Below, one piece after another: positions 7,113 through 60,296 of a DNA stretch of 64,000 bases (position 1 is its first letter; each line of letters starts with the position of its first letter). Below the pieces are notes generated by a model. That model made no database searches. It was not told the origin of the DNA and saw nothing but the letters and a program-made list of their open reading frames with translations. The stretch comes from Escherichia phage vB_EcoM_CRJP21. A program made the translations under genes and the position numbers. Location of the stretch: sequence record OQ708376.1; one strand, 5' to 3'.

Positions 7113-7331
7113 ATGAATTTATATCTAGTTGAAGGTTTAGTACAAGTCTATAAACCAGAAGGTGAAGGTCAACGTTTTTCACACGTAGAAGAATTTAAGT
7201 ACGTTGTACAGGCTGATGGTCAGTACGATGCGGAAATTCAAGTAGATGAATCATTCCGTAAGAAAAATGAAATTGGTAAATTTCAATACCAGAACTTACA
7301 ATATAAAGTATGGCCTAGTATAAATGACTAA
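7113..7331 (+). CDS. hypothetical protein (72 aa)
   Basis: ORF with GAGGAAT RBS. Confidence 0.5.
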   Translation: MNLYLVEGLVQVYKPEGEGQRFSHVEEFKYVVQADGQYDAEIQVDESFRKKNEIGKFQYQNLQYKVWPSIND

Positions 7332-7539
7332 GATGTGGTGGTGTCATGGTGTATATAACGTGTATGTAAATGGTAGATATAAAATGTCTAGTACCTATGC
7401 AAGACGTGTTAATGCGAACAACCAAGTTGATGCTGCTTGTGAGATCATTGAGTGGTATGCTGAGTTCAATGCACCTGACTATATGTACGAAATAGTTACA
7501 ATAAATGTTGTACAAATCGATACATCTTTGATACAATAA
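7324..7539 (+). CDS. hypothetical protein
   Basis: ORF in track; start uncertain. Confidence 0.35.
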   Translation: MTKMWWCHGVYNVYVNGRYKMSSTYARRVNANNQVDAACEIIEWYAEFNAPDYMYEIVTINVVQIDTSLIQ

Positions 7540-7571
7540 CCACATCAAAAAAATTGCATCTGAGGATACTT

Positions 7572-8234
7572 ATGTTAGTTAATCTTAATTTCATCACTTC
7601 ACCTGACTGGGCATTACGTGGAGTTTCTTTAAACTTCAAGGAAACTATGTTTGACTACATTGGTGAGTGTACATTGGTAAATGCAACTTTTGATCCAAAT
7701 CATCCGTTTTGGGCTGAAATTCATGATCCAAATGTAAACAACAATACATCTGTTATGACTATTGTCCAGACTAAACATGCAGGTATCCTTGCAGGTTATC
7801 GACCTGCACATGCAATTGAACACTTCACTGATTACGATGTCGTGGATGAATACCCAATGATCCATGAAGATGGAAGTCTATACACATCTGAAGACTTCCG
7901 TGCTATCTTTAATAGTACTGATGATATTCTACCAAGTGGACGTCCACGTCCTGAGTCTTATCTTATGCATCCATCTTATGGTGTAGCAGATACGCTTGAA
8001 CAGATTATGAATAAGTACAAGAACCTAATTGAAGGTCCAGAAGAAATTGTCCTGTGCTATCACCCAGTACTGAAGTCTGAACAACCAAAGGATGGTGGAT
8101 GGCGTTGGCATAAGAATGGTGAGTATATCGGTACTAAACGAAGTAAAGAACGTTTTGAGTACTTGTATGATGAGCCAGATGTTGATGTGGTTTTGTGTTA
8201 TAATTTTATTAAGGTGAAAAAGAAATGTATCTAG
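7572..8234 (+). CDS. hypothetical protein (220 aa)
   Basis: ORF track 7554-8234; ATG 7572 follows GAGGA. Confidence 0.55.
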   Translation: MLVNLNFITSPDWALRGVSLNFKETMFDYIGECTLVNATFDPNHPFWAEIHDPNVNNNTSVMTIVQTKHAGILAGYRPAHAIEHFTDYDVVDEYPMIHEDGSLYTSEDFRAIFNSTDDILPSGRPRPESYLMHPSYGVADTLEQIMNKYKNLIEGPEEIVLCYHPVLKSEQPKDGGWRWHKNGEYIGTKRSKERFEYLYDEPDVDVVLCYNFIKVKKKCI

Positions 8235-8467
8235 TACTAAGTTTTGTTGTTGCACTATTGTTTATGTTCTATCCTACACTAGTGGCATTAGCCACTAGAC
8301 GAACGATGGTAGATCTCACTACTGTATTCTTGCTAAACGTGGCATTAGTACTGGTGTCTATTATCATTCCAGTGAGCTTTACAGTTATTGATATTATTTC
8401 GGTATTACTCTTCGTGTTAAGTTATCTTATGCTTATTGAAGAAACAAATGTTGACAAACGTTCGTAG
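8225..8467 (+). CDS. small membrane protein (80 aa)
   Basis: two hydrophobic helices; start overlaps upstream gene. Confidence 0.45.
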   Translation: MYLVLSFVVALLFMFYPTLVALATRRTMVDLTTVFLLNVALVLVSIIIPVSFTVIDIISVLLFVLSYLMLIEETNVDKRS

Positions 8468-8479
8468 TACTGTATAATG
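8451..8479 (+). promoter_or_regulatory. promoter TTGACA-N17-TGTATAAT
   Basis: consensus hexamers, AGTACTG before -10. Confidence 0.6.
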
Positions 8480-8524
8480 GTTCCTGTAGTCTGAAACTTA
8501 ACACTTAAACTTGAGGTAAAAAAT

Positions 8525-8851
8525 ATGCTATCAGTACTAATTTCAATTCCGTCTTTAATTCTGATTTGGCTTCTGGTTTACGAATGCTTTATTACTGATG
8601 ATAATGATAAAAAAGAGTTCTCTGAGTTGTTTATGCTTGATTCACCGATTGTGCGTATTTTCTATACAGTAGTTGTGGTTTCAGTAATTGTATGGGTTTT
8701 GAGTTTTATCTTCCCACTCGGTGCAGTAGTTAAAACTTTGGATTTAGTTGAGAACTTTGTTGCAATTATGTGGCTAATCAAAGCACTATTTGCAGGAAAT
8801 GTTAAAATTTGGATTGATATTATCAAATTCAAGTTCACGAATAAGATGTAA
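8525..8851 (+). CDS. membrane protein (108 aa)
   Basis: GAGG RBS; multiple hydrophobic segments. Confidence 0.5.
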   Translation: MLSVLISIPSLILIWLLVYECFITDDNDKKEFSELFMLDSPIVRIFYTVVVVSVIVWVLSFIFPLGAVVKTLDLVENFVAIMWLIKALFAGNVKIWIDIIKFKFTNKM

Positions 8852-8929
8852 CAGTGAAAATATCTCTATAGTATTAAATACTTCTGTACATATATATAGT
8901 ACAGAAGTATTTCTCGTTAGAGGTTTGTT

Positions 8930-9289
8930 ATGAAGAGTTATATAAAATTAATAGCACTTGTGTGTGCATTATTTTCATGTTTTAGTTATGGTGCAGCAGC
9001 AGAAACATATTGTCGTAGTACTAAGGGAACGTGGCATGTATTGACTAACGACCCTAGAAATGGTAAAAATATAGTTGTTGATGGTGTGATTTATCGTTTT
9101 AAAGTAGAAAGTATTATCGGTAATAAAAAAATCTCGACTTATAGAGATGATTCTGGTACATTAGCAAACGTAATATTAATTGTAGACCCAAGAACTGGTA
9201 ATGGTGATATCTATATAGTAATTTACTTGGACTCATCGGTACGCCGTGACCTAGATATAGATAAATTGAACTTACACTGTGAAATATAG
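8930..9289 (+). CDS. secreted protein (signal peptide)
   Basis: N-terminus MKSYIKLIALVCALFSCFSYGAAAE. Confidence 0.5.
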   Translation: MKSYIKLIALVCALFSCFSYGAAAETYCRSTKGTWHVLTNDPRNGKNIVVDGVIYRFKVESIIGNKKISTYRDDSGTLANVILIVDPRTGNGDIYIVIYLDSSVRRDLDIDKLNLHCEI

Positions 9290-9300
9290 GACTTAAAAAA

Positions 9301-9678
9301 ATGGTAAACACTATTTTACTTTTGTTGTTGAATATTCCAATTATTCTGTCTTTTTTAATTTCTATTTTTATGGCAGGATATTGTTTAGTTGCAGTAATTC
9401 ATTTCATTTTAACAAACAAATATGTCCTAATTTCTAAGCTTGATTCTATTTTTGCTTGCGATTCGATTGCTTATAACTTGTGGTTAATTTGTTCTTGCAT
9501 TATGGGAGTAACTTTCCTTCTGTATGTATTTGATGTCCTTGACCAAAAGTTCGTATACATCAGTACTGGATTGGCTCTTTATCCTGCTACGTGGTACTTG
9601 ATTTACGTTGGTGATATATGGTATAGTACTTATAAAGAATATCAGTACAAGAAATCACTTAACGTTGGAGGAAAATAA
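9301..9678 (+). CDS. membrane protein (125 aa)
   Basis: multiple hydrophobic helices. Confidence 0.5.
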   Translation: MVNTILLLLLNIPIILSFLISIFMAGYCLVAVIHFILTNKYVLISKLDSIFACDSIAYNLWLICSCIMGVTFLLYVFDVLDQKFVYISTGLALYPATWYLIYVGDIWYSTYKEYQYKKSLNVGGK

Positions 9679-9680
9679 TC

Positions 9681-10031
9681 ATGAAAATTATTTTATTTTT
9701 TGTATGTATGTTAATGTGTGGATTGTCATATGCTGAACCATTGGAAGGTTTAGTTTGTACAGATGGTAATATTAAACATATCTATCAAGGTGATAGTGAC
9801 GATCGAGATATTGTATATATTGATGGACAATCATATACGTTTGTTAAAGAGCATACAGTAGGCGACATTAGCTTCACTGAGTTTTCTAACGACACAGACC
9901 CTAACTTCTTAGCGTTTATTGAAGTAGATGTATATGAAGATAGTAATGGCACACAATATGCTAAATTAGTTATGATGCGTCGTGGTGCTAAAGAAACTAG
10001 TTTTGGTGGCTTGTGTAAATATAAGGATTGA
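9681..10031 (+). CDS. secreted protein (signal peptide)
   Basis: GGAGG RBS; N-terminus MKIILFFVCMLMCGLSYAEP. Confidence 0.55.
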   Translation: MKIILFFVCMLMCGLSYAEPLEGLVCTDGNIKHIYQGDSDDRDIVYIDGQSYTFVKEHTVGDISFTEFSNDTDPNFLAFIEVDVYEDSNGTQYAKLVMMRRGAKETSFGGLCKYKD

Positions 10032-10035
10032 TATT

Positions 10036-10227
10036 ATGTTGATTTATCAAAGTGATAATATTCGTGTTATGCAGCATCCCTACTTACAAATCTTTGATGT
10101 GCAGCAGTATATGGAAGGTGATGACCCAAGAACCTATGGTCGTAAGTATGATTACTTCACTGTAAAGCAGTGTAAAAATATTAACGAAGTACGACAATTA
10201 GTTCAAGAACTTCAAAACAAAGGTTGA
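10036..10227 (+). CDS. hypothetical protein (63 aa)
   Basis: ORF track 9982-10227; ATG 10036 after AAGGA. Confidence 0.45.
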   Translation: MLIYQSDNIRVMQHPYLQIFDVQQYMEGDDPRTYGRKYDYFTVKQCKNINEVRQLVQELQNKG

Positions 10228-10256
10228 CTTCGGTCAGCCTTTTTTGTTATAATTCT
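10221..10256 (+). terminator. bifunctional terminator/promoter element (GGTTGAC-TTCG-GTCAGCC + T-run; -35 TTGACT in stem, TATAAT downstream)
   Basis: 8 bp stem with UUCG loop and T5; TTGACT-N18-TATAAT. Confidence 0.7.
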
Positions 10257-10281
10257 CTTAATAAATTAGAGGATTTTAATT

Positions 10282-10722
10282 ATGTATGTATATCGTTTTG
10301 AACTTAAATTCAGTTACATTGAACCTAACTTAGAACCTGCACGAACTGTAGGTCCGTTTGCACGGTATTCAACCAGATACAGTACTAAAAATGGATTTGA
10401 CCGTTTGCTTATGACTACACCTTCTCAATTCCAACCTGAACCAACTGAGGATGGGATCTATTCAATCAAAAGTGGATGGGTATTTGGCTGTCAAAGTTTG
10501 AAAGATTTGTTCAGATTCTTCACTATGGACTTGGGTAAATTGCATCGTGCTGGGTTTGCTATATCTGTATATGAAGTTCCAGACCACCATGTAGACATTG
10601 GTCGTAATCAGGTTCAGTACTATTGCGGTAGTGCTAAATTAGTTCGTATCATGTCAGTTAAGGAAGCAAAGGATGAGTTCCGACAAAGTAAAAGAGAAAC
10701 ACATGAGGTAATATATGGATAA
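10282..10722 (+). CDS. hypothetical protein (146 aa)
   Basis: GAGGAT RBS. Confidence 0.55.
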   Translation: MYVYRFELKFSYIEPNLEPARTVGPFARYSTRYSTKNGFDRLLMTTPSQFQPEPTEDGIYSIKSGWVFGCQSLKDLFRFFTMDLGKLHRAGFAISVYEVPDHHVDIGRNQVQYYCGSAKLVRIMSVKEAKDEFRQSKRETHEVIYG

Positions 10723-11059
10723 AACTCAAATAGAATTAAAGAAATTTGTTTCATTCTATCTTCCTGATGACCCACGTAATTCACAAAAAGATATTGAATA
10801 TTATAATATCCTATCTAAACAGTTAATGAGAAAGTTTCAACAGTGTTTAACTATATTCAATACAGATGGAAGACGTAGATACCGAATCGTTTCAATGAAT
10901 GATGAAAACGCAAATTTCTTTGATTACGATGTAGTTTTTAGAGCATATAATGATGATCGTATAAAATTAAATTATGATCAAATTATACTTGACCTGAATG
11001 TTATATGTGTTATAATCACTCACGTAGCCGAACTTAATGGTTTTAAAGAATGGTATTGA
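10715..11059 (+). CDS. hypothetical protein (114 aa)
   Basis: overlapping start. Confidence 0.5.
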   Translation: MDKTQIELKKFVSFYLPDDPRNSQKDIEYYNILSKQLMRKFQQCLTIFNTDGRRRYRIVSMNDENANFFDYDVVFRAYNDDRIKLNYDQIILDLNVICVIITHVAELNGFKEWY

Positions 11060-11073
11060 ATAGAGGATAACAT

Positions 11074-11340
11074 ATGAAGCTTAAATTACAATATAATGGA
11101 TTTACTTTACGTAATGATACTGAATTTATTAATCGTTCTCCTGGTGCTGAACTGTTTTTACGAGAGATGAACATTCCTTTCATCATTACTACAGTGGGCG
11201 ACCGTGAAGTTCTACAATATGCAGAGCATCCGATTATTGATGTTCCTTGGTACTCTGAGCATATGTACATGGATATGGCACGTCGCTACAACTGTAAGTT
11301 CGTAGTTGAAGGTGATAAAATTACAGTCGAATTTAAATAA
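11074..11340 (+). CDS. hypothetical protein (88 aa)
   Basis: GAGGAT RBS. Confidence 0.5.
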   Translation: MKLKLQYNGFTLRNDTEFINRSPGAELFLREMNIPFIITTVGDREVLQYAEHPIIDVPWYSEHMYMDMARRYNCKFVVEGDKITVEFK

Positions 11341-11352
11341 GGTAAATTAAAA

Positions 11353-11646
11353 ATGATCAGTACTTCAGTTAATGAAAGCATCGTCGCTGACGTAGAAATG
11401 GTTAAAGAATGTGCAGATGAAACTCTTCGTGATATGTACATTAATGATTTAATTACTGAATACGGTAGTCGTGGTGTACACGAATTTATTCGTTTAAGTG
11501 GAGAGTTGATGAAAAATCGAATTCGTATGAAGCTTAACGTACATCCAAAAGCATGGGCATTTACATTAAAATACGCAGAAGATATTGTTAATTTGCGTCG
11601 AACTGAAGTATATGAACGTTTGCACAATGGTATGTTAGATAAATGA
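11353..11646 (+). CDS. hypothetical protein (97 aa)
   Basis: ORF in track. Confidence 0.5.
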   Translation: MISTSVNESIVADVEMVKECADETLRDMYINDLITEYGSRGVHEFIRLSGELMKNRIRMKLNVHPKAWAFTLKYAEDIVNLRRTEVYERLHNGMLDK

Positions 11647-11655
11647 TTGTAAAAT

Positions 11656-11685
11656 AGGAATTCTTAAATGAATTCCTTTTTGTTT
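11656..11685 (+). terminator. intrinsic terminator (AGGAATTC-N-GAATTCCT + T-run)
   Basis: perfect inverted repeat followed by TTTTTGTTT. Confidence 0.65.
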
Positions 11686-11698
11686 ATAAGGTATAGTA

Positions 11699-11920
11699 AT
11701 GAAATATATAGTACTTGTACTGATATTATTCAGTACTGTTGTAAGTGCTAAACAAAAAGAATATGTTAAATGTATAAATTATGAAGAGAAATATGTTGAA
11801 ACATATAAAAAAAGTATAATTAAAAACGTTTCGATTACTAACAGAGCAACAATCATTGTACTTAAAAATGGGTTAATTATGCTATATAAACCACACGTTA
11901 AATGTGAAATTATTAATTGA
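11699..11920 (+). CDS. secreted protein (signal peptide)
   Basis: N-terminus MKYIVLVLILFSTVVSA. Confidence 0.5.
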   Translation: MKYIVLVLILFSTVVSAKQKEYVKCINYEEKYVETYKKSIIKNVSITNRATIIVLKNGLIMLYKPHVKCEIIN

Positions 11921-11927
11921 GGAAATT

Positions 11928-12500
11928 ATGAATCGTAAAGGTCGTTTTAAAGTATCAAAAAAGAACAAAAGTTCTAGGTTTAAACCTATTGTTTTAACAG
12001 TTAAATCTAACAAAGATTTAACTGCACTTAGTAAAAAGATAATTTCATCTAAGATTGAAGTATCATACGTAAATTCATTAAAATATATGAATGTCAAACC
12101 ACTGGACCAACTCATTTCACTTATATTTGAACGTAATGATTTTGAGATATCAGTAGATGATTATAGAGCCTATAATGCTGGTTTCATTAATGTTACTTGT
12201 AATAAAAAACTAACTGAGTTGGAAAATTTGTCATGTATAATAAATCTAGATAAAGGTGTTGTGAAGTACCATTTTGTACATTTCACTAATATCAATAATG
12301 GAATGGGTGTACAATCCAGACCTATAGTGCCTACGTGTGATGTTACTAAATTAGCAAAGCTCAATGATGAAGAATATTTTCAAGAAAGCATTGTAACTGA
12401 GCATTTAGATGATATAATAGCTACTTACAAAGAATGCATATGGGTGTTGAATGCTATAAAACCTAAATTGTGTTTAATGAATATTGTTCGTGATTTATGA
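11928..12500 (+). CDS. hypothetical protein (190 aa)
   Basis: ORF track 11904-12500; ATG 11928 after GAGGAAAT. Confidence 0.5.
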   Translation: MNRKGRFKVSKKNKSSRFKPIVLTVKSNKDLTALSKKIISSKIEVSYVNSLKYMNVKPLDQLISLIFERNDFEISVDDYRAYNAGFINVTCNKKLTELENLSCIINLDKGVVKYHFVHFTNINNGMGVQSRPIVPTCDVTKLAKLNDEEYFQESIVTEHLDDIIATYKECIWVLNAIKPKLCLMNIVRDL

Positions 12501-12513
12501 ATGGGGAATCGTA

Positions 12514-12957
12514 ATGAGTTGGGTAAATGTTAATAGTATTGAACTTAACGAACAAGATATTTTTGCATTTGTAAATTTAACTAATAACACAGTACTAAAA
12601 GGGCGTTTGTTCAGTGCTAGTGATGGGTACAAATGGATCTCTTTGATGGATGATAGTGGTGTGATTTATAATGTAATGCAATTACCCCAATGGGTATATA
12701 GTAACACTGCTGACGATGTTCTTACCGCAGTTATGCGTGAGTTTGAAAAACTCCCAGGTGGTGATATCAAAAACAAAGTTTTTAATGCAGAACGTAAAAA
12801 TTATACAGCACAGCAATTGGAATCCCTTGCCATTGCTGCTTATCAAGCTGCTATTAAGAAGCCAGAGTGCGTTATTCTTAAGTATGTACCAGACTTAAAA
12901 CTTACGTTGGAAGACATGGATGCATTCATTTTTACATCTGAACTTGAACAGTACTAA
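12514..12957 (+). CDS. hypothetical protein (147 aa)
   Basis: ORF track 12484-12957; ATG 12514 after GGGGAATCG. Confidence 0.5.
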   Translation: MSWVNVNSIELNEQDIFAFVNLTNNTVLKGRLFSASDGYKWISLMDDSGVIYNVMQLPQWVYSNTADDVLTAVMREFEKLPGGDIKNKVFNAERKNYTAQQLESLAIAAYQAAIKKPECVILKYVPDLKLTLEDMDAFIFTSELEQY

Positions 12958-13072
12958 TTTAACTTTGGGACAACCATTCTTATTATGATATAATGTTTTA
13001 TGTCATTCGATATAAATGACAACGGAACTATAAATATTATAGTAAAATTTATCTCTTATAGGAGTTATAAAA

Positions 13073-13456
13073 ATGGTTGATAAATGGAATAAGAAAGATC
13101 CATCACATGATGTTGATATTTCTGGTCTAGACAATGCACATAAGCACAAGTATCTAGATTCACTAGGTCTTCTAAAACCAGACCAAAGTCTTGCACATGA
13201 TCGTCCATCCCGTGAAAAAGCATTTAGCCTAGAATCACTAGGTCATGAGCTTAATCGTGTGTTTGAGGATCACCCAATCTATGTACGTGATATTATCGAG
13301 AAACTTAAAGTAACTCCTAAAGAGCACTTTAAAGCAACTGTACACTCTGCATTCCGTGCATTGCATGATTCTCTAAAGAAAACTCACAATCTTCGTAAAA
13401 TTCATGATGAAATCGTGAATGCAATCGAAAGTGAAAAACATAAGTTCAAGAAGTAA
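13073..13456 (+). CDS. hypothetical protein (127 aa); shares LDSLGLL motif with 13727-15214
   Basis: AGGAG RBS. Confidence 0.55.
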   Translation: MVDKWNKKDPSHDVDISGLDNAHKHKYLDSLGLLKPDQSLAHDRPSREKAFSLESLGHELNRVFEDHPIYVRDIIEKLKVTPKEHFKATVHSAFRALHDSLKKTHNLRKIHDEIVNAIESEKHKFKK

Positions 13457-13461
13457 TAAAA

Positions 13462-13496
13462 AGGGGTTGACTAAGGTCAGCCCTTTGTTGTATCAT
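13462..13496 (+). terminator. bifunctional terminator/promoter element (variant loop TAAG)
   Basis: GGGGTTGAC-TAAG-GTCAGCCC + T-run; TATCAT downstream. Confidence 0.6.
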
Positions 13497-13525
13497 AACT
13501 TCTCAATATAACTGAGGTATCATAT

Positions 13526-13639
13526 ATGCAAGGTTTGAAATTTGTAGTTGCTGCACTCATCGCCGCAGTTCTGGTTGGTGGTGTATTCTATGTAGTGGAT
13601 CAAAAAGTAAATCCACCTGCACAAGAACAATCTAAGTAA
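13526..13639 (+). CDS. small membrane protein (37 aa)
   Basis: TGAGGT RBS N7 ATG; single hydrophobic helix; flanked by terminator/promoter elements on both sides; below ORF-track size cutoff. Confidence 0.4.
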   Translation: MQGLKFVVAALIAAVLVGGVFYVVDQKVNPPAQEQSK

Positions 13640-13646
13640 CAAAATA

Positions 13647-13680
13647 AGGTTGACTTCGGTCAGCCTTTTCTTTATACTAT
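13647..13680 (+). terminator. bifunctional terminator/promoter element
   Basis: GGTTGAC-TTCG-GTCAGCC + T-run; TATACT downstream. Confidence 0.65.
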
Positions 13681-13726
13681 AAATATAGTCATAGAGAAAA
13701 AAATGAAATCTATGGAGAGAAATCAA

Positions 13727-15214
13727 ATGCCAAGTAATTTTACTGATAAAAATGGTGGTAACATGGCTGGTCACTCTGATAAATGGAGTGAACGCAACCG
13801 CCGTCCAAATAGTTATCAAGCAGGTCAAGGTTCACGTGGGTCACGTAACCAAGGAACTGGTCTAGCTGGTAAAGCAAACGCAGAAGCAGGTGAAGTTAAG
13901 AGTACTGAGAACATGACTGAGCTAGAAAAGCTACGTTATGTTAACTCATTAGGTCTTCTTAACGCAACACAAAAACAACGCCTTGCTGATATGGAACGTG
14001 CTGAGAAAGAACAAGCAGTTCCTAAAGAAGAACCAAAAGCAGAAGTACCTAAAGCTGCTAACCCTGTTAAAGAGTTATCAGATAACTTAGGTAAGATCTT
14101 TGCTAACAAACCACAGTTGATTCAGGGTATTGTCAAAGCACTACAGGCAGTTCCTAAAGAAGAACTCAAAGGTAAAGCACAAGCTGTACTTGATGTAATG
14201 AAAGGTAATAAGAGCACTGAACCAACTGAAGTATTCAGTACTATCATGCGTGCACTTGAAGGTACACACAAAGAAGATTCCAAAGAACCTGAACAGGGTG
14301 AAGCAAGTCTTGATGGTATTCTTAAAACTTTTGATAATATTGGTAAAGCAGACCGTGCTAATGCCCAGCAAGTCAAGAATGTACTGGCTAAACTTGAAAA
14401 CCGTTTAGAAGGTAAAGACAATAAGGTTAAGCTCGTATCAGATGCAGTTAACAGTGCACTTAAATCTTATGTACAAGGTGAGAAAAGTCGCTTCGTAACA
14501 GCTATGGATGCTGCATTCAACACTATGAAAAAGTATGAAGCAGAACATGGTGAGAAGGTAACACCAGATGGTTATCTAAAGCGTGCAGATGAAGAGGGTG
14601 CAGTTGAACAGAAAGATGTTGAGCCTGAGCAAGAAGAAATACCTGATACCGTTGATATGGATGGATACATTCATCGTCCTGAGATGGAAGAGTTTGGGTC
14701 AGATAAAGAAGGTTTTGAACATGCAATGGCAGTATATAAAGCATTAGTTAAAAATCCAGATTATGCTAACCGTTTTGTTGACGAGTTTGATAGTGCATGG
14801 AATAACTACAAAGAGAAAGGTTATGACTTCCCTGCTGAAGCTGCATTCTTTGAACTTGGTAAACTATTAGCTAAACATGGAATTGACGTTGGTTCATCTG
14901 ATTCCGAAGGTATGGAAGAAGAACATCTTGAAATGACCGATAAATCAATTCATGAACTTCAAAAGCTAATGATGTGGATATCCGAGATTGGCAAAAAAGC
15001 AGGTGCTGATCGTAAAAGTATCAACAAAAACATTAGTTGGATTAAAGATAATGTTGGTAACAATGCTCGTAAACTTCAAAAGGCGTGGGCTGATTTAGTA
15101 AATGGTGCAGATGATGTTGACATTGAATCACCAGAAGCATATGAGTATGCACTAACTACACTTGATAACTCATTCAAAGAGTACGACAGTGGTGTTGGAA
15201 AGGATAAAAAATAA
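13727..15214 (+). CDS. large acidic Lys/Glu-rich protein (about 495 aa), unknown function
   Basis: ORF track 13703-15214; ATG 13727 after GGAGAG; low-complexity acidic composition. Confidence 0.55.
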   Translation: MPSNFTDKNGGNMAGHSDKWSERNRRPNSYQAGQGSRGSRNQGTGLAGKANAEAGEVKSTENMTELEKLRYVNSLGLLNATQKQRLADMERAEKEQAVPKEEPKAEVPKAANPVKELSDNLGKIFANKPQLIQGIVKALQAVPKEELKGKAQAVLDVMKGNKSTEPTEVFSTIMRALEGTHKEDSKEPEQGEASLDGILKTFDNIGKADRANAQQVKNVLAKLENRLEGKDNKVKLVSDAVNSALKSYVQGEKSRFVTAMDAAFNTMKKYEAEHGEKVTPDGYLKRADEEGAVEQKDVEPEQEEIPDTVDMDGYIHRPEMEEFGSDKEGFEHAMAVYKALVKNPDYANRFVDEFDSAWNNYKEKGYDFPAEAAFFELGKLLAKHGIDVGSSDSEGMEEEHLEMTDKSIHELQKLMMWISEIGKKAGADRKSINKNISWIKDNVGNNARKLQKAWADLVNGADDVDIESPEAYEYALTTLDNSFKEYDSGVGKDKK

Positions 15215-15223
15215 ACATTTAAA

Positions 15224-15260
15224 AGGTTGACTTCGGTCAACCTTTTTTTGTAAATATAAA
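15224..15260 (+). terminator. bifunctional terminator/promoter element (perfect stem GGTTGAC/GTCAACC)
   Basis: UUCG-loop hairpin + T7. Confidence 0.7.
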
Positions 15261-15285
15261 AGAGGAATTAAGAAGAGGGATTACA

Positions 15286-15537
15286 ATGAAAAAATATATT
15301 ATATTTGGAATTGTATTATTTTCCAGTACTAGTTATGGTGCAGATTATCATTGCTCCGTAGCAAGACAGGATTTCAGAAATGGGGATTTCTATACCACTT
15401 CATACACAAAAGGAATAATACACGACATCGACACAACTATTGGATTTAATGCATTTGATAACAAAGATTCATATACTTCAGGTATACTATCTGAGCGTAA
15501 GACTGATGTAATGGGAATAGAAAAAGAGTTCCGGTGA
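15286..15537 (+). CDS. secreted protein (signal peptide)
   Basis: N-terminus MKKYIIFGIVLFSSTSYGA. Confidence 0.5.
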   Translation: MKKYIIFGIVLFSSTSYGADYHCSVARQDFRNGDFYTTSYTKGIIHDIDTTIGFNAFDNKDSYTSGILSERKTDVMGIEKEFR

Positions 15538-15547
15538 TTCAGTAGCA

Positions 15548-15871
15548 ATGTGCAATGACATTGAAAGTACTAAAACAATTTATTATAATAATGAACGTAA
15601 TTATCGTTTTCATAATTTAACCACAAATAAAAGTTTACTATTTTACAATTGTAAAGAAGTAAAACTCCCACCCGACAATAGCTGTAACCCGACGAACCCA
15701 TCACCAGCACAATGTAATACTCAATCTGAACCTGATAACAATAAAAAAGACAAAGATAAAGATAAAAAAGAAGACAAAAAACCTTTAAAAGATAAAAAGA
15801 AAGATAAAAAACCTAATCCGTTTAAAAATAATAAACCAGCACAACCCGATATGACGTGTAAAATAAAATAA
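15548..15871 (+). CDS. Cys-containing protein with Lys/Asp-rich low-complexity tail
   Basis: ORF in track; weak RBS; KDKDKDKKEDKK repeat. Confidence 0.3.
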   Translation: MCNDIESTKTIYYNNERNYRFHNLTTNKSLLFYNCKEVKLPPDNSCNPTNPSPAQCNTQSEPDNNKKDKDKDKKEDKKPLKDKKKDKKPNPFKNNKPAQPDMTCKIK

Positions 15872-15880
15872 GGATATATA

Positions 15881-16300
15881 ATGAAAAAGATTTTTTTAAG
15901 TATTATTTTAGTACTTTTTAGTTTTAATGTATATGCAGCAGATGCTAAACAGGTTGCAAATACAGTAAAAGATGTTATAGTAGATAATGCTCCTACATTA
16001 GAGGAAATTGGGGTAAAAACTTGTGATATAGTAATATATAATTTAGTTAATGATGAACGAGTTATGTTGAATACGTATGAACAAGTAGTCCCATTGGTTG
16101 AATCTGGTGATGCTTTTAGCTTTACATATAAAGTTAAATTAACAGGAGGGGTTGAAGTTAATCTTGACATTGATACCGCTTCAGTACTAAAAGATAAACT
16201 AGGATATGTGTTCAATCGTATTCGTGAAGAAGGTCATCTTAAGTATGTTTATGAAAGTAAAATACTAAAACGTGCAATAGTTATAGAAAACTGTAAATGA
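15881..16300 (+). CDS. secreted protein (signal peptide)
   Basis: N-terminus MKKIFLSIILVLFSFNVYAADA. Confidence 0.55.
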   Translation: MKKIFLSIILVLFSFNVYAADAKQVANTVKDVIVDNAPTLEEIGVKTCDIVIYNLVNDERVMLNTYEQVVPLVESGDAFSFTYKVKLTGGVEVNLDIDTASVLKDKLGYVFNRIREEGHLKYVYESKILKRAIVIENCK

Positions 16301-16307
16301 TAATAAA

Positions 16308-16340
16308 AGGGTTGACTTCGGTCAGCCTTTTTTGTTATGA
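16308..16340 (+). terminator. bifunctional terminator/promoter element
   Basis: GGGTTGAC-TTCG-GTCAGCC + T6. Confidence 0.7.
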
Positions 16341-16369
16341 TGTTGATATTAACTACAGAGGATAAAGTA

Positions 16370-17011
16370 ATGACTAAGCAAGAAATATTCAAAACTTTAA
16401 TTGACATTTTGCGTCCATCAAAAACTCGTTGTGCGATGGAGTTTGATATTCCTTATGCTGAACGCGTAATCTTTCCACAAGTTAAAGCTGCTGGACTTAC
16501 TTTGCTTGGAATGGGGATGTACTCTGTAGTAGTTGAACATAAAAACTATCCTGGACGAGCATTTAAAGTAACCACTTCACGCTGGGATGGTTTTCGTGCT
16601 TATGCAAAGTACTGCATTGAAAACGCAGGAACCAAGTTTCTTCCAGTGATCTACAGTGCCAACGAACAAGGAAACTTTGGATGGTATGAGATGGACAAGT
16701 ACTATCCTATAATTAAACAAAAAAATAATTATGATGACTTTGTTAGTACTAAAATTGGAGATTTGTATTCGTATGCACATGCTGGTCAGTACGCAACTTC
16801 AGTGAATGATATGCGTGGAAATTCTGAAGAGATTGCTATTGCAACGGTCGCTGCTAACATCATGAAAGAGTTTCACGGGCGTTTTGTACCAGACATTCAT
16901 TCAAGTAATGTGATGATGGATAAAGATGGGAATGTATTCATTACTGATCCTCTTTCGTGTGATGTGCGTAGAGAAATACCAATTACTGAAGAAGATCCAG
17001 TTTTTTATTGA
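16370..17011 (+). CDS. hypothetical protein with possible kinase/phosphotransferase-like motif (DIHSSNVMMDKDGNVFITD)
   Basis: ORF track 16337-17011; ATG 16370 after GAGGA; motif-level resemblance only. Confidence 0.5.
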   Translation: MTKQEIFKTLIDILRPSKTRCAMEFDIPYAERVIFPQVKAAGLTLLGMGMYSVVVEHKNYPGRAFKVTTSRWDGFRAYAKYCIENAGTKFLPVIYSANEQGNFGWYEMDKYYPIIKQKNNYDDFVSTKIGDLYSYAHAGQYATSVNDMRGNSEEIAIATVAANIMKEFHGRFVPDIHSSNVMMDKDGNVFITDPLSCDVRREIPITEEDPVFY

Positions 17012-17072
17012 CAGAACTGATGTTCTGATGTATTCTTAATAAACCATAAAAATTGCGGTAAAGGATAAAATC

Positions 17073-17354
17073 ATGCGTTCATTTGAAAACTTAATAGGTA
17101 AGCATCTTTTATCTGAAATTGATGCAGACGTTAAAGAATTATCCAAATCAAAAAGTTACATTCATTTGGATGAACTGTTTGTTAAGTACGGTGAGATTGG
17201 TTTTAAGTCATTATTTGTTTTTACTATGAAAGTACATAGTTTAAAGTACTTCGATTTGAGTGCTAAAGATGGTGAACCGAATCTATATTACATGTATTAC
17301 CTTAAGAACAAAGATGAAGCTAATACATTACTCTCTGAATATATATTGGGGTAA
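17073..17354 (+). CDS. hypothetical protein (93 aa)
   Basis: AGGA RBS. Confidence 0.5.
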   Translation: MRSFENLIGKHLLSEIDADVKELSKSKSYIHLDELFVKYGEIGFKSLFVFTMKVHSLKYFDLSAKDGEPNLYYMYYLKNKDEANTLLSEYILG

Positions 17355-17356
17355 AA

Positions 17357-17695
17357 ATGGAACAATATTTTGAATTAATAAACAAAGTATCATTTTATGT
17401 AGTATCTTTGGTTTGGGTGTATTATATGTTTTGCTATATTATTGCATTCTTCCGATACACTACTTTATATGAACGTATCTACTATGATGCCCCAATTTCA
17501 TTCTTGATGTTTTGTGCCTGTACGTGGGGAATATTAGAAGTACTGATATGTGGGTATAGTACTGATGAATTAAATCTGGTATCGGTGTTGACTGGGTTTT
17601 CATTTGTTGTTATGATAGCTGCCGTTCCAGTATGGTTGTTCTTTGGACTAGTTCATCGCATTGATATATGGCGTTCTAATATCCCTGAAAAGTAA
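17357..17695 (+). CDS. small membrane protein, paralog family member (array A, 1 of 3)
   Basis: hydrophobic helices; C-terminal R-x-N-[ILM]-P-[EN]-[KRE] tail shared with 10 other ORFs. Confidence 0.55.
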   Translation: MEQYFELINKVSFYVVSLVWVYYMFCYIIAFFRYTTLYERIYYDAPISFLMFCACTWGILEVLICGYSTDELNLVSVLTGFSFVVMIAAVPVWLFFGLVHRIDIWRSNIPEK

Positions 17696-17704
17696 GGATT
17701 GGTA

Positions 17705-18046
17705 ATGATTTATTACACTAACATGTTTGCCTATGCTGTTGCTTGCATTTACATTGTTTACTTCTTATTCGGTGGAGTACTGTGCTTCTTTAAGTACAAA
17801 ACGTTGTTCAACCGAATGTACCCAAATCATCCAATTGTAGTTGTACTTTTGATTCTTTCAGTTTCTCAAATAATCGTTGAAACTACAATGGGTATCAGTA
17901 GTGTACATTATAGTTTTGGTACTATAGTAATTATTACTATGCTTATTGCATACATTTTAGTACTTGGATATGGTATCTTTGGTAATATTGGTATGAAAAT
18001 GTATCATCGAATTAAAACATTACGTGATAATCTACCGGAGCGTTGA
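17705..18046 (+). CDS. small membrane protein, paralog family member (array A, 2 of 3)
   Basis: ATG 17705 after AAGGA; C-terminal tail RDNLPER. Confidence 0.55.
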   Translation: MIYYTNMFAYAVACIYIVYFLFGGVLCFFKYKTLFNRMYPNHPIVVVLLILSVSQIIVETTMGISSVHYSFGTIVIITMLIAYILVLGYGIFGNIGMKMYHRIKTLRDNLPER

Positions 18047-18047
18047 T

Positions 18048-18392
18048 ATGTATAATTTGAACCTAATCTCATATATTATAACAACACTGTTTACATTCTA
18101 TGCCTTTGTTGGTATAATCCTACTGTACTTTAAATTTTATAAAGTGTTTAACCGTTTCTATCCTTCAATGGAGAATGAGTTTTTCTTTGTGTTGTACGTA
18201 GGTTACACATTAATGGCTACATGTTTCACTGTAGCCGATGGTGTCATCGGCATTAAAACTGATTCCCCAAATGGTAGTACGCTGGTTGCATTTATTCTTA
18301 CTGGATTCCTTGCAACTTATATTGCCTTCATTACAACATGGTCAGTGGTTGAATTTCTCTTGCGACTACGAAAGAATATGCCGAATCGATAG
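18048..18392 (+). CDS. small membrane protein, paralog family member (array A, 3 of 3)
   Basis: ATG 18048 after GGAG; C-terminal tail RKNMPNR. Confidence 0.55.
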   Translation: MYNLNLISYIITTLFTFYAFVGIILLYFKFYKVFNRFYPSMENEFFFVLYVGYTLMATCFTVADGVIGIKTDSPNGSTLVAFILTGFLATYIAFITTWSVVEFLLRLRKNMPNR

Positions 18393-18401
18393 GAGACATA
18401 T

Positions 18402-18656
18402 ATGTTTGCGTTGCGTAATAAAAACACTAAAGAATTATTATGTATTGATACCGTATGGGATTGTGCGGGGTCAACTACAGTTCTTGAAGAAGGAACTGGA
18501 TATTGCGTGTTTGTTGTACATGATAGGAATGAACTCGAATTATTACTTGCTGAGTTCAATGCTGGTGGTAATCCTAACAGTACTGAATACCCTGAGATTA
18601 TCAATCCAGCACCACCAGGCTCTTATGAAATTCTACAACTGTGGGAGTTGAAGTAA
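18402..18656 (+). CDS. hypothetical protein (84 aa)
   Basis: GGAGA RBS. Confidence 0.5.
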   Translation: MFALRNKNTKELLCIDTVWDCAGSTTVLEEGTGYCVFVVHDRNELELLLAEFNAGGNPNSTEYPEIINPAPPGSYEILQLWELK

Positions 18657-19036
18657 TGCGTCAAATGCACAAAGTAACCGAGCTAAACAAGCGTCTGGTT
18701 AAACAATCAATGTTCGAGGATAAAGAGTCTTATTATAACTTTAAACGTGCAGTAGAGGCTGCTATCCACATTCAGAAGCTTAAAGAACGTGGTTGTATTA
18801 TTCTGGAAAATGGTTCGGAAGTTGTAACGGATGACTTTAGTGTAGCGTTTGATGTTTCACCTGACGGGACGCTATCAATGCCCCGCTTAGGAACTGGAAA
18901 CATGACTGTTTGGGTTGGCTTCACTATGGGGAATGTACCTGGTACTGTGTACGTAGATGATGCAGAATTGAAAGACAGTTTCAAAAACTTATCTTATCTT
19001 GAACCACAATACGCACATGAAATGAATTTATTTTGA
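18656..19036 (+). CDS. hypothetical protein (126 aa)
   Basis: ORF track 18641-19036; ATG 18656 after GGAG. Confidence 0.5.
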   Translation: MRQMHKVTELNKRLVKQSMFEDKESYYNFKRAVEAAIHIQKLKERGCIILENGSEVVTDDFSVAFDVSPDGTLSMPRLGTGNMTVWVGFTMGNVPGTVYVDDAELKDSFKNLSYLEPQYAHEMNLF

Positions 19037-19037
19037 G

Positions 19038-19094
19038 TTGACAAACACATTCAGTACTGTATAATGCTTATCAAGGGGATGAACTTCTCATCCC
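19038..19094 (+). promoter_or_regulatory. promoter TTGACA-N17-TGTATAAT followed by 5' stem-loop GGGATGA-N-TCATCCC
   Basis: consensus hexamers; hairpin just downstream of predicted start site. Confidence 0.6.
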
Positions 19095-19112
19095 TACAAT
19101 CGAGGAACTACC

Positions 19113-19667
19113 ATGATTACTTTTAAGAAAACTGCTAACCACATCCATGAAATCTACATTAACGGTCACAAAGCTGGCCTTCTTCGTTTACTCGCCCATC
19201 ACCCTGATGCTACCGTATCTGATAATGAACCTAAAGATTGGCGTGTCTTTTTCTTTGGAAAGTACAGTGATTTTCAAGTATCAAACCTGAAGAACATTCG
19301 TTCAGTATGCACGTTAAATGAAATTAAAGAAAAGTTAGCACAAGCATTGAAAACTAATCCAGATGGTGTTCTTCCACCTGATAACTTTGTAGAGAAAGGT
19401 TATGCCTTAGCTCATTTCAAAGATGGTACTATTCAATCTATCAGTACTGAATATGAATATCATTGGACTGAGTACTTCACTTATGGTTCGAGTAATACAT
19501 TGATGGATTCACGTAGTAAATTGGAAGAAGTACTGACTCGTATGAATGAACGCGAGCGTCAGTTATATGACAAACCAGAAATGTGGAGTTCAACTTACAT
19601 TGACCGTATTGACTATGTTATTATGACTCCAATCTTTGACACTGCTTACTATGATTCTTTGAAATAA
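19113..19667 (+). CDS. hypothetical protein (184 aa)
   Basis: GAGGAACT RBS. Confidence 0.55.
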   Translation: MITFKKTANHIHEIYINGHKAGLLRLLAHHPDATVSDNEPKDWRVFFFGKYSDFQVSNLKNIRSVCTLNEIKEKLAQALKTNPDGVLPPDNFVEKGYALAHFKDGTIQSISTEYEYHWTEYFTYGSSNTLMDSRSKLEEVLTRMNERERQLYDKPEMWSSTYIDRIDYVIMTPIFDTAYYDSLK

Positions 19668-19679
19668 GGATAACTTATA

Positions 19680-19856
19680 TGAAACTACGTACTCGTAATC
19701 GACTGATGGATGCACTGTACCATGAACAGCTTTCACTGAATGAAGTGAAGCGTCAGTTAATGTACACATATCAGTTTCCCGCTCGCATTGCAAAACAACG
19801 TGCTAAAGAATTGCTGAAAGAAGCAATCGAGTACTGGGAATCTGATTCGTACTAAT
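19680..19856 (+). CDS. hypothetical basic protein (58 aa)
   Basis: AAGGA N8 ATG; below ORF-track cutoff. Confidence 0.4.
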
Positions 19857-20154: not shown

Positions 20155-20526
20155 ATGAATATAGATTTGAAAGGTGCAACACGAACTGTTATCCTCGTTG
20201 GGGAATATGCTATCAAGATTCCAACCTTTAAAAGTTGGAAGCTATTCTTAACAGGGATGATAGCTAACCTCAATGAACGTTCGTGGATGCAGTACTCCAA
20301 TCGTAGTGATAGTAGTATCTGTCCTACGTTGTGGTCATCATGTACTGGACTAGTAACTGTACAGAAACGTTGTAAGCCAGTTCAACATAGGGGTTTATTT
20401 TGGGTGGAGTTGTGTGCTTTAGCATTGAATTCAGAGTTAAGTACTGACTTCTTCTATTCAGATGCGAAGCCAGAAAACTTTGGGTATCTGGGTGGTAAGT
20501 TAGTTAAACTTGATTATGGAGATTAA
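20155..20526 (+). CDS. small protein with protein-kinase-like catalytic motifs (AIK, D-x-KPEN, DYG)
   Basis: ORF track 20110-20526; motifs EYAIKIP, SDAKPENFGY, VKLDYGD; motif-level only. Confidence 0.4.
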   Translation: MNIDLKGATRTVILVGEYAIKIPTFKSWKLFLTGMIANLNERSWMQYSNRSDSSICPTLWSSCTGLVTVQKRCKPVQHRGLFWVELCALALNSELSTDFFYSDAKPENFGYLGGKLVKLDYGD

Positions 20527-38229: not shown

Positions 38230-39432
38230 CTATTGTTGCCATAACTGCGTTGGCATTAATGTTAGTGTAGTAATACTATAAGTGCCATCTGGCAATCTAC
38301 CACCATTTCCATTCCAGCCACCACATGCATATAATTTATAATCTTTAGTAATTATTATGGTTCTGCTCCAATCTTTAGATGCCATAAGAACATTTTCATA
38401 ACCACCACTTATTGCACTAAGATTAAAAATATTCCAAGTTCTAACTAATGTATTAGTTCCATTACCTTCTTGACCATATGAGTTAGCACCACTACTTCTA
38501 ACATATGGTGCGTATTGTGCCATAGGTGCACCAATTGATGCATTTCCCATATTACTTGGACAAATAAAAGTACTGTACTTACTTACATCAACCGTGACCG
38601 ATGTGTTCCTAATTGGTGTTAGCTGATTTACCGATGTAGTCGTACCATTACCCGCTTGTCCAGTACTGTTAGCCCCGCTATAATATACAGACCCACCAGT
38701 AGTAAACCACCAAGTAACATCGTATGTAGTACTAATATGTTCTACATTACTAATCACGAATTTGTTCAAATATACAACAGAACTACCACCACATCCACTT
38801 TCACCAAAGTTATCCTTACCACAAAACCATGCATCTTTATTTGATTTGATATAGTGCGTTCCTTGTAATGAACATGCCATATGTGTAACTTCACCCATAT
38901 TAGTCATAACTGTGAGTGTAGGGATGGAATTTTTATTACCAGAGCCACATTCACCATTGGTATTTCTTCCACACGCAATTACTCTACCATCGGTTAATAA
39001 TATTCTAGTACTTTCACCTATATATACACTCTTGATCATATTAGCCATAACACCTATTTTATTAAATGCAACAGTAACATCAGTCCATGTTGTCAAATAA
39101 CCATTAACAGGTGTTGCATCTCCATAATCAGAAAATGCAGCCACAGACCCAGTGTAGTATATTTTATTATCCAAATCAATCATCAACGAACCTTGAACAC
39201 CAAGCCAAAAGGCTGCACAGTTCCTTGCAAGTACTGTAAATGACGAAACTGCTGCTGAATTCCCAAGACCAAATTGATACATGTTATTACTACCATAACC
39301 ATATAAAGTATTAGTTGGGTTATGTAGATACATACAGTTTGTATAATGTTGTTGTAAAACATCTGAGAACTCTACAGGTTCTGGACCTGGTGCAATATTT
39401 GCGTACTTAACCATTCTTCCAAAAGGTAACAT
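38230..39432 (-). CDS. RCC1-like beta-propeller repeat protein (paralog 9 of 9, first transcribed)
   Basis: N-terminus MLPFGRMVKYANIAPGP; motifs GSNNMYQFGLGN, GANSYGQEGNG; AAGGAGGGAAAT RBS with TATAAT-like box upstream. Confidence 0.7.
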   Translation of the reverse strand: MLPFGRMVKYANIAPGPEPVEFSDVLQQHYTNCMYLHNPTNTLYGYGSNNMYQFGLGNSAAVSSFTVLARNCAAFWLGVQGSLMIDLDNKIYYTGSVAAFSDYGDATPVNGYLTTWTDVTVAFNKIGVMANMIKSVYIGESTRILLTDGRVIACGRNTNGECGSGNKNSIPTLTVMTNMGEVTHMACSLQGTHYIKSNKDAWFCGKDNFGESGCGGSSVVYLNKFVISNVEHISTTYDVTWWFTTGGSVYYSGANSTGQAGNGTTTSVNQLTPIRNTSVTVDVSKYSTFICPSNMGNASIGAPMAQYAPYVRSSGANSYGQEGNGTNTLVRTWNIFNLSAISGGYENVLMASKDWSRTIIITKDYKLYACGGWNGNGGRLPDGTYSITTLTLMPTQLWQQ

Positions 39433-58802: not shown

Positions 58803-59057
58803 ATGATTAAGGTACAACTATCTAAAGATAATATCTTGCGGGTACACTATAAAGCACCACAGAGAATCATCACAAAGGCCGTACAGCTTGCTAATGAGTT
58901 TATTAATGGTAACCTATTACCAAGGAAGTTAAGCAACGGAAAACTGCGTGTAATCGATGTAGACACTAACAACAGAATAGTAATTGAGAACACAGGAAAG
59001 ATAAACCTATATGAACACCAACAATATAATAAGAAAATAAAACTAATATCACGTTGA
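58803..59057 (+). CDS. hypothetical protein (84 aa)
   Basis: ORF in track. Confidence 0.5.
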   Translation: MIKVQLSKDNILRVHYKAPQRIITKAVQLANEFINGNLLPRKLSNGKLRVIDVDTNNRIVIENTGKINLYEHQQYNKKIKLISR

Positions 59058-59110
59058 CAGTACTCAATTGTTTTAGTACTATGTACATATACCAACACGG
59101 GAGAAACAAA

Positions 59111-59329: not shown

Positions 59330-59387
59330 TTGACAGTACTCAAATGTTTTAGTACTATATGTACATACCAACACGGGGAAAAACAAA

Positions 59388-59630
59388 ATGATTACTTTAG
59401 AAAAACGTATCAAAGAAACTACATCGCTGGTGGAACTGTTAACAGTACTGAAATGCCGTACTACTCGGTTTAGTACACCGGACTTTATTAATATGGTTGA
59501 TGTTAATGGTCGCTATCGTATCACGGTCGAACAAGGAGCGGCGAAAGTATTCAGTACTAAAAACACTAAGGAAGTGATTCACGCTGTAAGTGTTAAAAAA
59601 GTAGTTGCCATTGATAGTAAAGTACTGTAA
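59388..59630 (+). CDS. hypothetical protein (80 aa)
   Basis: preceded by near-duplicate of the 59055-59110 intergenic. Confidence 0.5.
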   Translation: MITLEKRIKETTSLVELLTVLKCRTTRFSTPDFINMVDVNGRYRITVEQGAAKVFSTKNTKEVIHAVSVKKVVAIDSKVL

Positions 59631-59661
59631 GATAGTTTCATTAACTCAAGGAGAACATGCA

Positions 59662-60246
59662 ATGCGTAATTATACTAAATTCATCCGTACCCTGTCAGAA
59701 ATGGAAACCAACAAAGAGATCCTTTCAGCTTGTCGGTTAGCTGGTCTGGAGATCATCGGTGCGGGTTCTTCCCGTATTGTATTCGCTTTAAATGATCGGT
59801 TAGTGATTAAGGTCGCGAATTGTGATGCGGGTGTAGAACAAAATGAAACTGAATGTAAGGTATGGAATTTTTTAGATTATGACCGCCCTCAATTGAAACA
59901 GTACTTTGCAAAGGTGCATATGCATTTATGCGATCCTGATAATATGTTTATCGTTATGGATCGGTTGAGTACTGCAAGTAAAGGCAGTGTAAAGCACGTA
60001 AACGCGTGCAATGAATTAAAGTACAATATTAAACGTAATGCCATTGAACGCCAGCACCGCTTTGCTGATGCACTACAACACGTTGATGATACATTATCAA
60101 CACTAACGATAAGAGATATCAGAAAACAGAATATCGGCCAGGATCGTAATGGCCTTATTAAAGTACTTGATTACGGTTTAACCCGCAATATCTGGAATCA
60201 GTACTATAAAAAGCGTGATGTAGAAGCAAGTAAGGTAACACGATAA
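59662..60246 (+). CDS. small protein-kinase-like protein (G-loop GAGSSRIV, VIKV, RDIRKQN, DYG)
   Basis: ORF track 59605-60246; ATG 59662 after AAGGAG; kinase subdomain motifs in canonical order. Confidence 0.45.
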   Translation: MRNYTKFIRTLSEMETNKEILSACRLAGLEIIGAGSSRIVFALNDRLVIKVANCDAGVEQNETECKVWNFLDYDRPQLKQYFAKVHMHLCDPDNMFIVMDRLSTASKGSVKHVNACNELKYNIKRNAIERQHRFADALQHVDDTLSTLTIRDIRKQNIGQDRNGLIKVLDYGLTRNIWNQYYKKRDVEASKVTR

Positions 60247-60260
60247 AAAAGATTAAAAAA

Positions 60261-60296
60261 GGGATTGACTCCGGTCAGTCCCTTTGCTATTATATA
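60261..60296 (+). terminator. bifunctional terminator/promoter element
   Basis: GGGATTGAC-TCCG-GTCAGTCCC; TATTAT downstream. Confidence 0.6.

Follow-up and report, generated by a model that had tools for sequence, protein, structure and literature searches.

A minimal protein-kinase-like gene of Escherichia phage vB_EcoM_CRJP21 and its family, PHROG 4301

The T7 kinase (T7K) disarms defences through broad phosphorylation and provides a precedent for early phage kinases as anti-defence tools; a jumbo-phage T7K homologue, named for phage G17 and without the shut-off domain, is discussed in a 2026 Nature paper on the enzyme (PMC13645617). At the small end of the kinase fold, the bacterial effector kinases OspG/NleH (Shigella and E. 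coli), HopBF1 (Pseudomonas) and SteC (Salmonella) combine a core of about 200 amino acids (aa) with a depleted C-lobe and are made by parasites for use inside the host (PMC9950578, PMC13395416). The 64,000-nucleotide (nt) stretch of Escherichia phage vB_EcoM_CRJP21 analysed here (sequence record OQ708376.1; referred to below as the window) comes from an Asteriusvirus-type jumbo coliphage and contains, at 59662..60246 on the + strand, a minimal protein-kinase-like coding sequence (194 aa, 22.5 kDa, isoelectric point 9.2). The evidence supports a protein-kinase-like fold with a full catalytic residue set, Ser/Thr specificity and activity being predicted only, and places the protein in PHROG 4301, a family that bears the label 'unknown function'.

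With the canonical kinases (PF00069; MKK4/MKK7, PknB), which provide its best sequence-profile matches and many of its structural matches, the 194-aa protein shares the N-lobe architecture, the glycine loop, the β3 lysine and the αC glutamate, together with an Asp-x4-Asn motif, a DFG-type Asp 13 residues past that Asn and a core of normal length. It differs from them in having no activation segment, APE motif or helices αF-αI, in carrying Arg in place of the third Gly of the glycine loop, and in the QNxxE sequence of αC. The minimal effector kinases are like the phage protein in core size, in the depleted C-lobe and in being parasite-made for use inside the host, whereas they act on eukaryotic cells; the N-lobe of SteC (8jbi) is the best Protein Data Bank (PDB) match of the widest family profile, at E=0.022 and over the N-lobe only. 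SteC activity needs residues up to 429, αF included, and OspG depends on E2~ubiquitin (PMC13395416).

T7K and the 194-aa protein, the latter on present indications, are alike in being early phage-encoded proteins of kinase fold, and the same genome carries both; T7K homologues, however, have a DPV-type motif where DYG stands here, and T7K possesses a C-terminal DNA-binding/shut-off domain. The atypical and small-molecule kinases APH(2''), Rio2, Bud32 and ArkI are comparable in their small size (Bud32 and ArkI, about 216-236 aa). Rio and Bud32 lack an activation loop, and the atypical and small-molecule group lacks a conserved Lys past the catalytic Asp. Unlike the phage protein, these enzymes still possess a helical C-terminal subdomain, and none of them was matched in the sequence-profile searches; examined for a Pfam APH-type match and a helical C-terminal subdomain, the 194-aa protein did not show APH family membership.

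Gene, fold and catalytic residues

The 585-nt open reading frame (ORF), as read from the ORF list and the sequence, encodes 194 aa and ends in a TAA stop, and a Shine-Dalgarno sequence, AAGGAG, can be read at 59649..59654 (+), 7 nt upstream of the ATG. The surrounding 59-61 kb stretch is 95-98% identical to G17, Sharanji, PBECO4, 121Q and others; the protein itself is 100% identical in phages G17, E9.1 and two further phages, and the ratio of nonsynonymous to synonymous substitution rates (dN/dS) of the ORF against its phage 121Q orthologue is 0.19. Besides those in Asteriusvirus, orthologues of nearly equal length, at 36-52% identity, occur in several jumbo-phage groups, among them RaK2/K64-1-like Klebsiella, Salmonella SE_PL, Klebsiella fENko-Kae01, Erwinia, Xanthomonas, Yersinia and Pectobacterium phages. 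A longer ORF starting from the TTG at 59605 was rejected: besides overlapping the upstream gene, it lacks a ribosome-binding site and disagrees with the annotated orthologues, all of which are 585 nt. For 59662..60246, chance motifs and a spurious ORF were likewise rejected.

A protein-kinase-like gene had been claimed in a preliminary description of this DNA, and a protein-kinase-like fold is borne out by profile matches in the PDB, by weak Pfam Pkinase matches and by the structural neighbours of a confident AlphaFold2 model. When searched against PDB sequences, the family profiles gave 337 to 723 matches at E<=10, nearly all of them protein kinases among the 60 listed per search; the best was MKK4 (E=1.5e-4 and 2.9e-5), MKK7 was also matched, and the glycine loop, catalytic loop and DFG were in register. 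In Pfam, the 194-aa protein matches Pkinase (PF00069) with E=0.0024 and 17.8 bits, residues 46-181 aligning with profile positions 26-152, and a second sub-threshold match is to PK_Tyr_Ser-Thr (E=0.0046). The weak Pfam matches that recur among 81 homologues belong to the kinase clan (Pkinase, PK_Tyr_Ser-Thr, YrbL, ABC1, AceK), with just 8 of the 81 reaching E<=0.1; ten distant homologues gave one weak Pkinase match in all, and an NCBIfam search returned nothing useful.

Structure prediction, one of the checks set beforehand, likewise yielded a kinase-like fold and not one unrelated to kinases. With a 13-sequence alignment the AlphaFold2 model was unusable (predicted local distance difference test score, pLDDT, 50.6), whereas an alignment of 81 homologues gave a usable model with a pLDDT of 93.9 and a predicted template modelling (TM) score of 0.90. 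This model is bilobal and similar in fold to solved kinases; its structural neighbours are almost all protein-kinase-like, and Foldseek searches of the PDB and of BFVD are concordant. The nearest BFVD models are those of the protein itself, of its RaK2 orthologue (TM 0.85) and of numerous phage proteins of 117-250 aa, some of which are named protein kinases.

All four kinase motifs that had been claimed for the ORF were found in their places and in the correct order. The glycine-rich loop, G33-A-G35-S36-S37-R38-I-V40 (59758..59781, +), aligns with GSGTCGQV in MKK7; an invariant Arg, R38, stands where GxGxxG has its third Gly. The β3 'VAIK' lysine is K50 in VIKV (59809..59811, +) and is invariant in the homologue alignments. 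Helix αC, which spans residues 55-73 in the AlphaFold2 model, carries Q60-N61-x-x-E64 (59839..59853, +); E64 is the predicted salt-bridge partner of K50, and Q60/N61 form a family-specific invariant pair one helical turn ahead of it. The catalytic loop, R151-D152-I-R-K-Q-N157 (60112..60132, +), aligns with RDIKPSN of MKK4 and RDVKPSN of MKK7, and the DFG-equivalent metal-binding motif, D170-Y-G172 (60169..60177, +), aligns with the DFG of MKK4/7. The spacing of D152, N157 and D170, 5 and 13 residues, is identical to that of D166, N171 and D184 in PKA (textbook numbering).

Conservation follows the same residues. Across 13 homologues of 40-95% identity there is no variation at G33, G35, S36, R38, V40, K50, E64, D152, D170 and G172, and almost none at N157. 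In wide alignments of 55 and 81 family members, at about 20-30% identity, R38, K50, G57, Q60, E64, D170 and G172 are invariant in both, G35, S36, N61 and G159 are also invariant in the larger, and D152 is kept in at least 90% of the wide set. The family signature may be written GxGSSRxVF...VxKxA.N..G..QN..E ... D....N.G...G.(I/V)xLLDYG. That K50, E64 and D170 are invariant, and D152 so widely kept, among members that have diverged so far speaks for catalysis as the selected property. The earlier wording of RDIRKQN as 'HRD-like' is apt for the Asp and the Asn; it does not extend to the Arg before the Asp or the Lys/Arg after it, neither of which is conserved in the family.

The preliminary description had also called the kinase compressed, which proved not to be the case. 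The core is of normal length, with residues 29-182 aligning with 151 residues of MKK7, and what makes the protein short is its early end, 22 residues beyond G172, the last residue of DYG. In the model, two N-terminal helices are followed by β1-β3, the long αC (55-73), β4/β5, helices 109-120 and 130-145, the catalytic loop, two short strands, DYG and one short helix (175-182), before the chain ends at 194. The helices at 109-120 and 130-145 are αD/αE-like, and the C-lobe is reduced to its catalytic heart: the activation segment, P+1/APE, αF (its Asp included), αG, αH and αI are all absent from the sequence and the model.

Proposed activity and competing explanations

On balance, we favour a stand-alone, minimal phosphotransferase of protein-kinase-like type as the gene product; a member of a phage-restricted family, it is probably expressed early and directed at the host. 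In the mechanism proposed, Mg-ATP would bind between the lobes, with K50-E64 holding the α/β phosphates, N157 and D170 chelating Mg2+, and D152 acting as the catalytic base on the substrate hydroxyl. R38, at the tip of the glycine loop, and Q60/N61 would lie beside the γ-phosphate/acceptor site, where they would substitute for the HRD+2 lysine and perhaps also replace part of the absent substrate-binding surface. Host σ70 RNA polymerase would transcribe the kinase gene, together with an 80-aa gene upstream of it, right after DNA entry, and the enzyme would phosphorylate host proteins, or phage proteins co-delivered with it, in the course of takeover or as a means of blunting defences. Full activity or specificity would probably need a partner or self-association. 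Such a need is to be expected, since the canonical peptide-binding elements are missing, SteC needs extra C-lobe parts and OspG needs a partner; it also fits the conservation of the 80-aa neighbour in fENko-Kae01 and the many family members that are predicted to have 2-4 tandem modules in one polypeptide.

Several observations weigh against this assignment. The Pkinase match, at 17.8 bits, falls under the Pfam gathering cut-off of 31.7, and αF, the anchor of the hydrophobic spines in canonical kinases, is missing. The HRD His/Arg and the Lys two residues past the catalytic Asp vary, homologues reading IID, AQD, VAD and YGD, a pattern met more often among atypical or small-molecule kinases; one homologue (P0008) has Gln in place of N157. 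Among the genomic contexts examined, no conserved partner was found save the 80-aa gene in one other lineage, and the host-directed or anti-defence role is suggested by analogy with the T7 kinase alone. Additionally, the minimal kinase SteC is inactive if cut soon after its DFG-like motif, at residues 375/377, and OspG requires a host partner for activity (PMC13395416). In the light of both precedents, the 194-aa protein may be inactive alone.

The same truncation can be read as pointing to an active phosphotransferase with a non-protein substrate, such as an antibiotic-like compound, a sugar, a defence nucleotide signal or an RNA hydroxyl (compare the archaeal tRNA kinase ArkI). Every peptide-binding element of protein kinases is missing, the position of the Lys that follows the catalytic Asp varies, and the invariant polar residues R38, Q60 and N61 suggest a single fixed acceptor over many proteins; furthermore, the structural scores of APH and ArkI are as good as those of protein kinases. 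Genomic associations lend themselves to this explanation as well, in that one family member (P0120) is fused to GNAT, 2H phosphoesterase and CCA-adding enzyme domains and another has RtcB and a KTI12/AAA_33-type kinase within a few kb, but the fusion is possibly a gene-calling artefact and the RtcB neighbourhood is a single case. Moreover, the significant profile matches are all to protein Ser/Thr/Tyr kinases and none to APH, choline kinase, Rio or Kdo, and the protein likewise has no helical C-terminal subdomain for substrate binding such as small-molecule kinases possess, so that a non-protein substrate is best regarded as a possibility of some weight, though a doubtful one. A further explanation is that the protein is pseudokinase-like and carries out no phosphotransfer, binding instead a nucleotide or a host protein as inhibitor, decoy or scaffold, or performing other chemistry such as AMPylation. 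The loss of αF-αI removes a scaffold that canonical kinases need, and SteC is inactive when cut after its DFG-like motif (PMC13395416). A 123-aa paralogue in the window ends exactly at DYGD, and it is difficult to see how so short a protein could complete a catalytic cycle on a protein substrate; arrays of 2-4 tandem modules would be in keeping with function by binding or avidity. As a rule, however, at least one of the β3 Lys, the catalytic Asp and the DFG Asp has been lost in pseudokinases, whereas the invariance of K50, E64 and D170 and the retention of D152 in at least 90% of so divergent a family make this explanation distinctly unlikely. A protein unrelated to kinases, be it a SAICAR-synthetase/ATP-grasp-like ligase or a carrier of chance motifs, is highly improbable: the SAICAR synthetase fold is one that resembles the kinase fold, sequence identity is just 8-13%, and no Pfam SAICAR_synt match was found at E<=10 for the 194-aa protein or at E<=0.1 for the 81 homologues. 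Nearly all other structural matches and all profile matches are kinases with motifs in register, and the D-x4-N-x12-D-x-G signature and the K/E pair are kept family-wide.

A bolder proposal, offered as speculation and unlikely to hold as it stands, extends the phosphotransferase assignment to the family as a whole. PHROG 4301 proteins would then be the smallest self-sufficient protein-kinase-like enzymes known (123-200 aa, with the chain ending at DFG or shortly past it), managing without αF-αI by means of the glycine-loop Arg and the αC Gln-Asn, perhaps assembling with one another or with a small partner, and acting as early or injected effectors with possibly non-protein targets (RNA, defence nucleotides); the idea of injection arises because one module sits within a tape-measure-like protein. 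If true, the family would represent a second phage strategy of phosphorylation-based takeover or anti-defence, mechanistically distinct from the T7 kinase.

The PHROG 4301 family and the other kinase-like genes of the window

The 194-aa protein matches PHROG 4301 with E=1e-41 and 143.9 bits, residues 3-187 aligning with profile positions 13-184 of 225, and in Pfam and NCBIfam scans that included 81 homologues no model was found to cover this kinase-like family. An exhaustive profile search recovered at least 2,074 clusters at 50% identity (E<=1e-3), and 245 at E<=1e-10; the cluster members are mostly 180-260 aa long, and the contigs listed or examined are large and phage-like. The family is phage-restricted and is a more interesting object than the single gene. 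The contexts of two distant homologues proved to be ordinary phage neighbourhoods with no common partner.

Some records and one paper had already named the single gene a kinase, and in that respect the present result is a modest one that confirms and sharpens the annotation. Orthologues in GenBank are called 'serine/threonine-protein kinase PRP4' (fEgEco12), 'PknA' (Turkey3), 'protein kinase domain-containing protein' (ph0011), 'serine/threonine-protein kinase' (Turkey5) and 'putative protein kinase' (SE_PL, fENko-Kae01), most others being 'hypothetical protein'; the Sharanji paper names the orthologue (WNN14351.1) as a protein kinase of unknown function. Our literature searches turned up no account of PHROG 4301 as a family of minimal phage kinases, nor of its truncation or function. 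What is new here is the kinase-fold assignment and the conserved residue set for PHROG 4301, which give annotators a name, while K50, D152, D170 and R38 offer experimenters clear targets for point mutants. The family is also relevant to the question of how small a portion of the kinase fold suffices for catalysis.

Some members are considerably longer than a single module. P0021, P0023, P0028, P0030, P0032 and P0037, at 450-970 aa, contain 2-4 tandem mini-kinase modules, the glycine loop and DYG recurring every 210-250 residues; these may be real poly-kinases or merged gene calls. In P0131 (3248 aa), a module occupies residues 857-1033 of a polypeptide that also has a PhageMin_Tail (tape-measure-type) domain, a hint of virion delivery. 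P0120 (2130 aa) combines an N-terminal module with more kinase-like repeats, GNAT, 2'-5' RNA ligase/2H phosphoesterase and CCA-adding/poly(A) polymerase domains, a set with an RNA-repair theme.

The preliminary description had counted the gene as the third kinase-like gene in the window, and three is the correct number, the others lying at 16337..17011 and 20155..20526. The gene at 20155..20526 (+) encodes a 123-aa paralogue that matches PHROG 4301 with E=1.5e-43. Its motifs are a G-x-x-R-x-V loop, an AIK lysine, NxxE, D-x-K-x-x-N and DYG; the chain ends '...DAKPENFGYLGGKLVKLDYGD' followed by the stop, right at DYGD. Searches of all window ORFs by phmmer and hmmsearch with the 194-aa protein and three family profiles returned no paralogue; this one was recovered by a motif regular expression and then by its PHROG 4301 match. 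Aligned against the family alignment with hhalign it scored weakly, at a probability of 6.6%, with the motifs nonetheless in register.

The gene at 16337..17011 (+) encodes a T7 gp0.7-like kinase of 224 aa (121Q gp205), which matches PHROG 15752 with E=1.2e-98 and has no Pfam match. Between this protein and the 194-aa family, phmmer and hmmsearch gave no match and hhalign a probability of 1%, and the 194-aa protein does not match PHROG 15752, the T7 gp0.7 family. Asteriusvirus jumbo phages carry a T7K homologue together with two members of an unrelated minimal kinase family.

Genomic setting and a candidate partner

The kinase gene lies within a run of short + strand genes, many of which are preceded by a perfect promoter-like site, TTGACA-N16/17-TATAAT. 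Fifteen such sites occur in the window against 0.17 expected (about 90-fold enrichment), and ten of them are on the + strand between 53.5 and 62.3 kb, oriented with the genes. Many of the promoter-like sites share AGTACTG directly before the -10 TATAAT, and the common TTGACA/AGTACTG/TATAAT pattern looks like a phage-specific early promoter consensus. Perfect sites include those at 57231, 57571, 57840, 58272 and 60693, of which 57571 and 57840 are identical over 28 nt.

Ahead of the kinase gene itself, a σ70-type promoter-like site, TTGACA-17-TACTAT (59330..59358, +; 10 of 12 matches), is the likely start of a two-gene transcript that would comprise the 80-aa gene and the kinase gene. A near-duplicate segment resembling it lies at 59054..59082 (+). 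Both carry TTGACAGTACTGAA...TACTAT and translate as MTVLNCFST... and MTVLKCFST...; they are probably repeated regulatory DNA and not coding. Downstream, 12 nt past the stop, a terminator-like 12-bp stem-loop (AAAGGGATTGAC-TCCG-GTCAGTCCCTTT; 60258..60285, +) overlaps the next promoter-like site (60265-60293). The G17 record annotates a 'terminator' in the matched 2-kb region, which may be the hairpin at 60258-60285.

The position of the orthologues in other genomes bears on the timing of expression. In vB_Ec-M-J, the orthologue at 16,690-17,274 falls within the annotated direct terminal repeat 1-21,525, and in fENko-Kae01 a 39%-identical orthologue at 16,233-16,823 falls within the direct terminal repeat 1-19,736; the placement is thus found in two different genera, about 16-17 kb from the genome end. 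An orthologue inside a direct terminal repeat is present in two copies per packaged genome, and several records show two. From the cluster of σ70 promoter-like sites and the terminal-repeat location we infer, on good grounds, early expression by host RNA polymerase.

The 80-aa gene (59388..59630, +) ends 31 nt before the kinase ATG, and its co-transcription with the kinase gene is probable from this arrangement. In fENko-Kae01, the kinase orthologue is immediately preceded by a homologue (36% identity, E=2e-10); this homologue matches PHROG 27158, 'virion structural protein', and its record carries the note 'identified with LC-MS/MS' (liquid chromatography-tandem mass spectrometry). The 80-aa gene and the kinase gene may form a conserved partner cassette. 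In RaK2 a non-homologous gene precedes the kinase orthologue. Elsewhere in the window, eight ORFs of similar size (358-433 aa) at 29635..39432 on the - strand, which are 'regulator of chromosome condensation (RCC1)'-like in related records, form a paralogous array.
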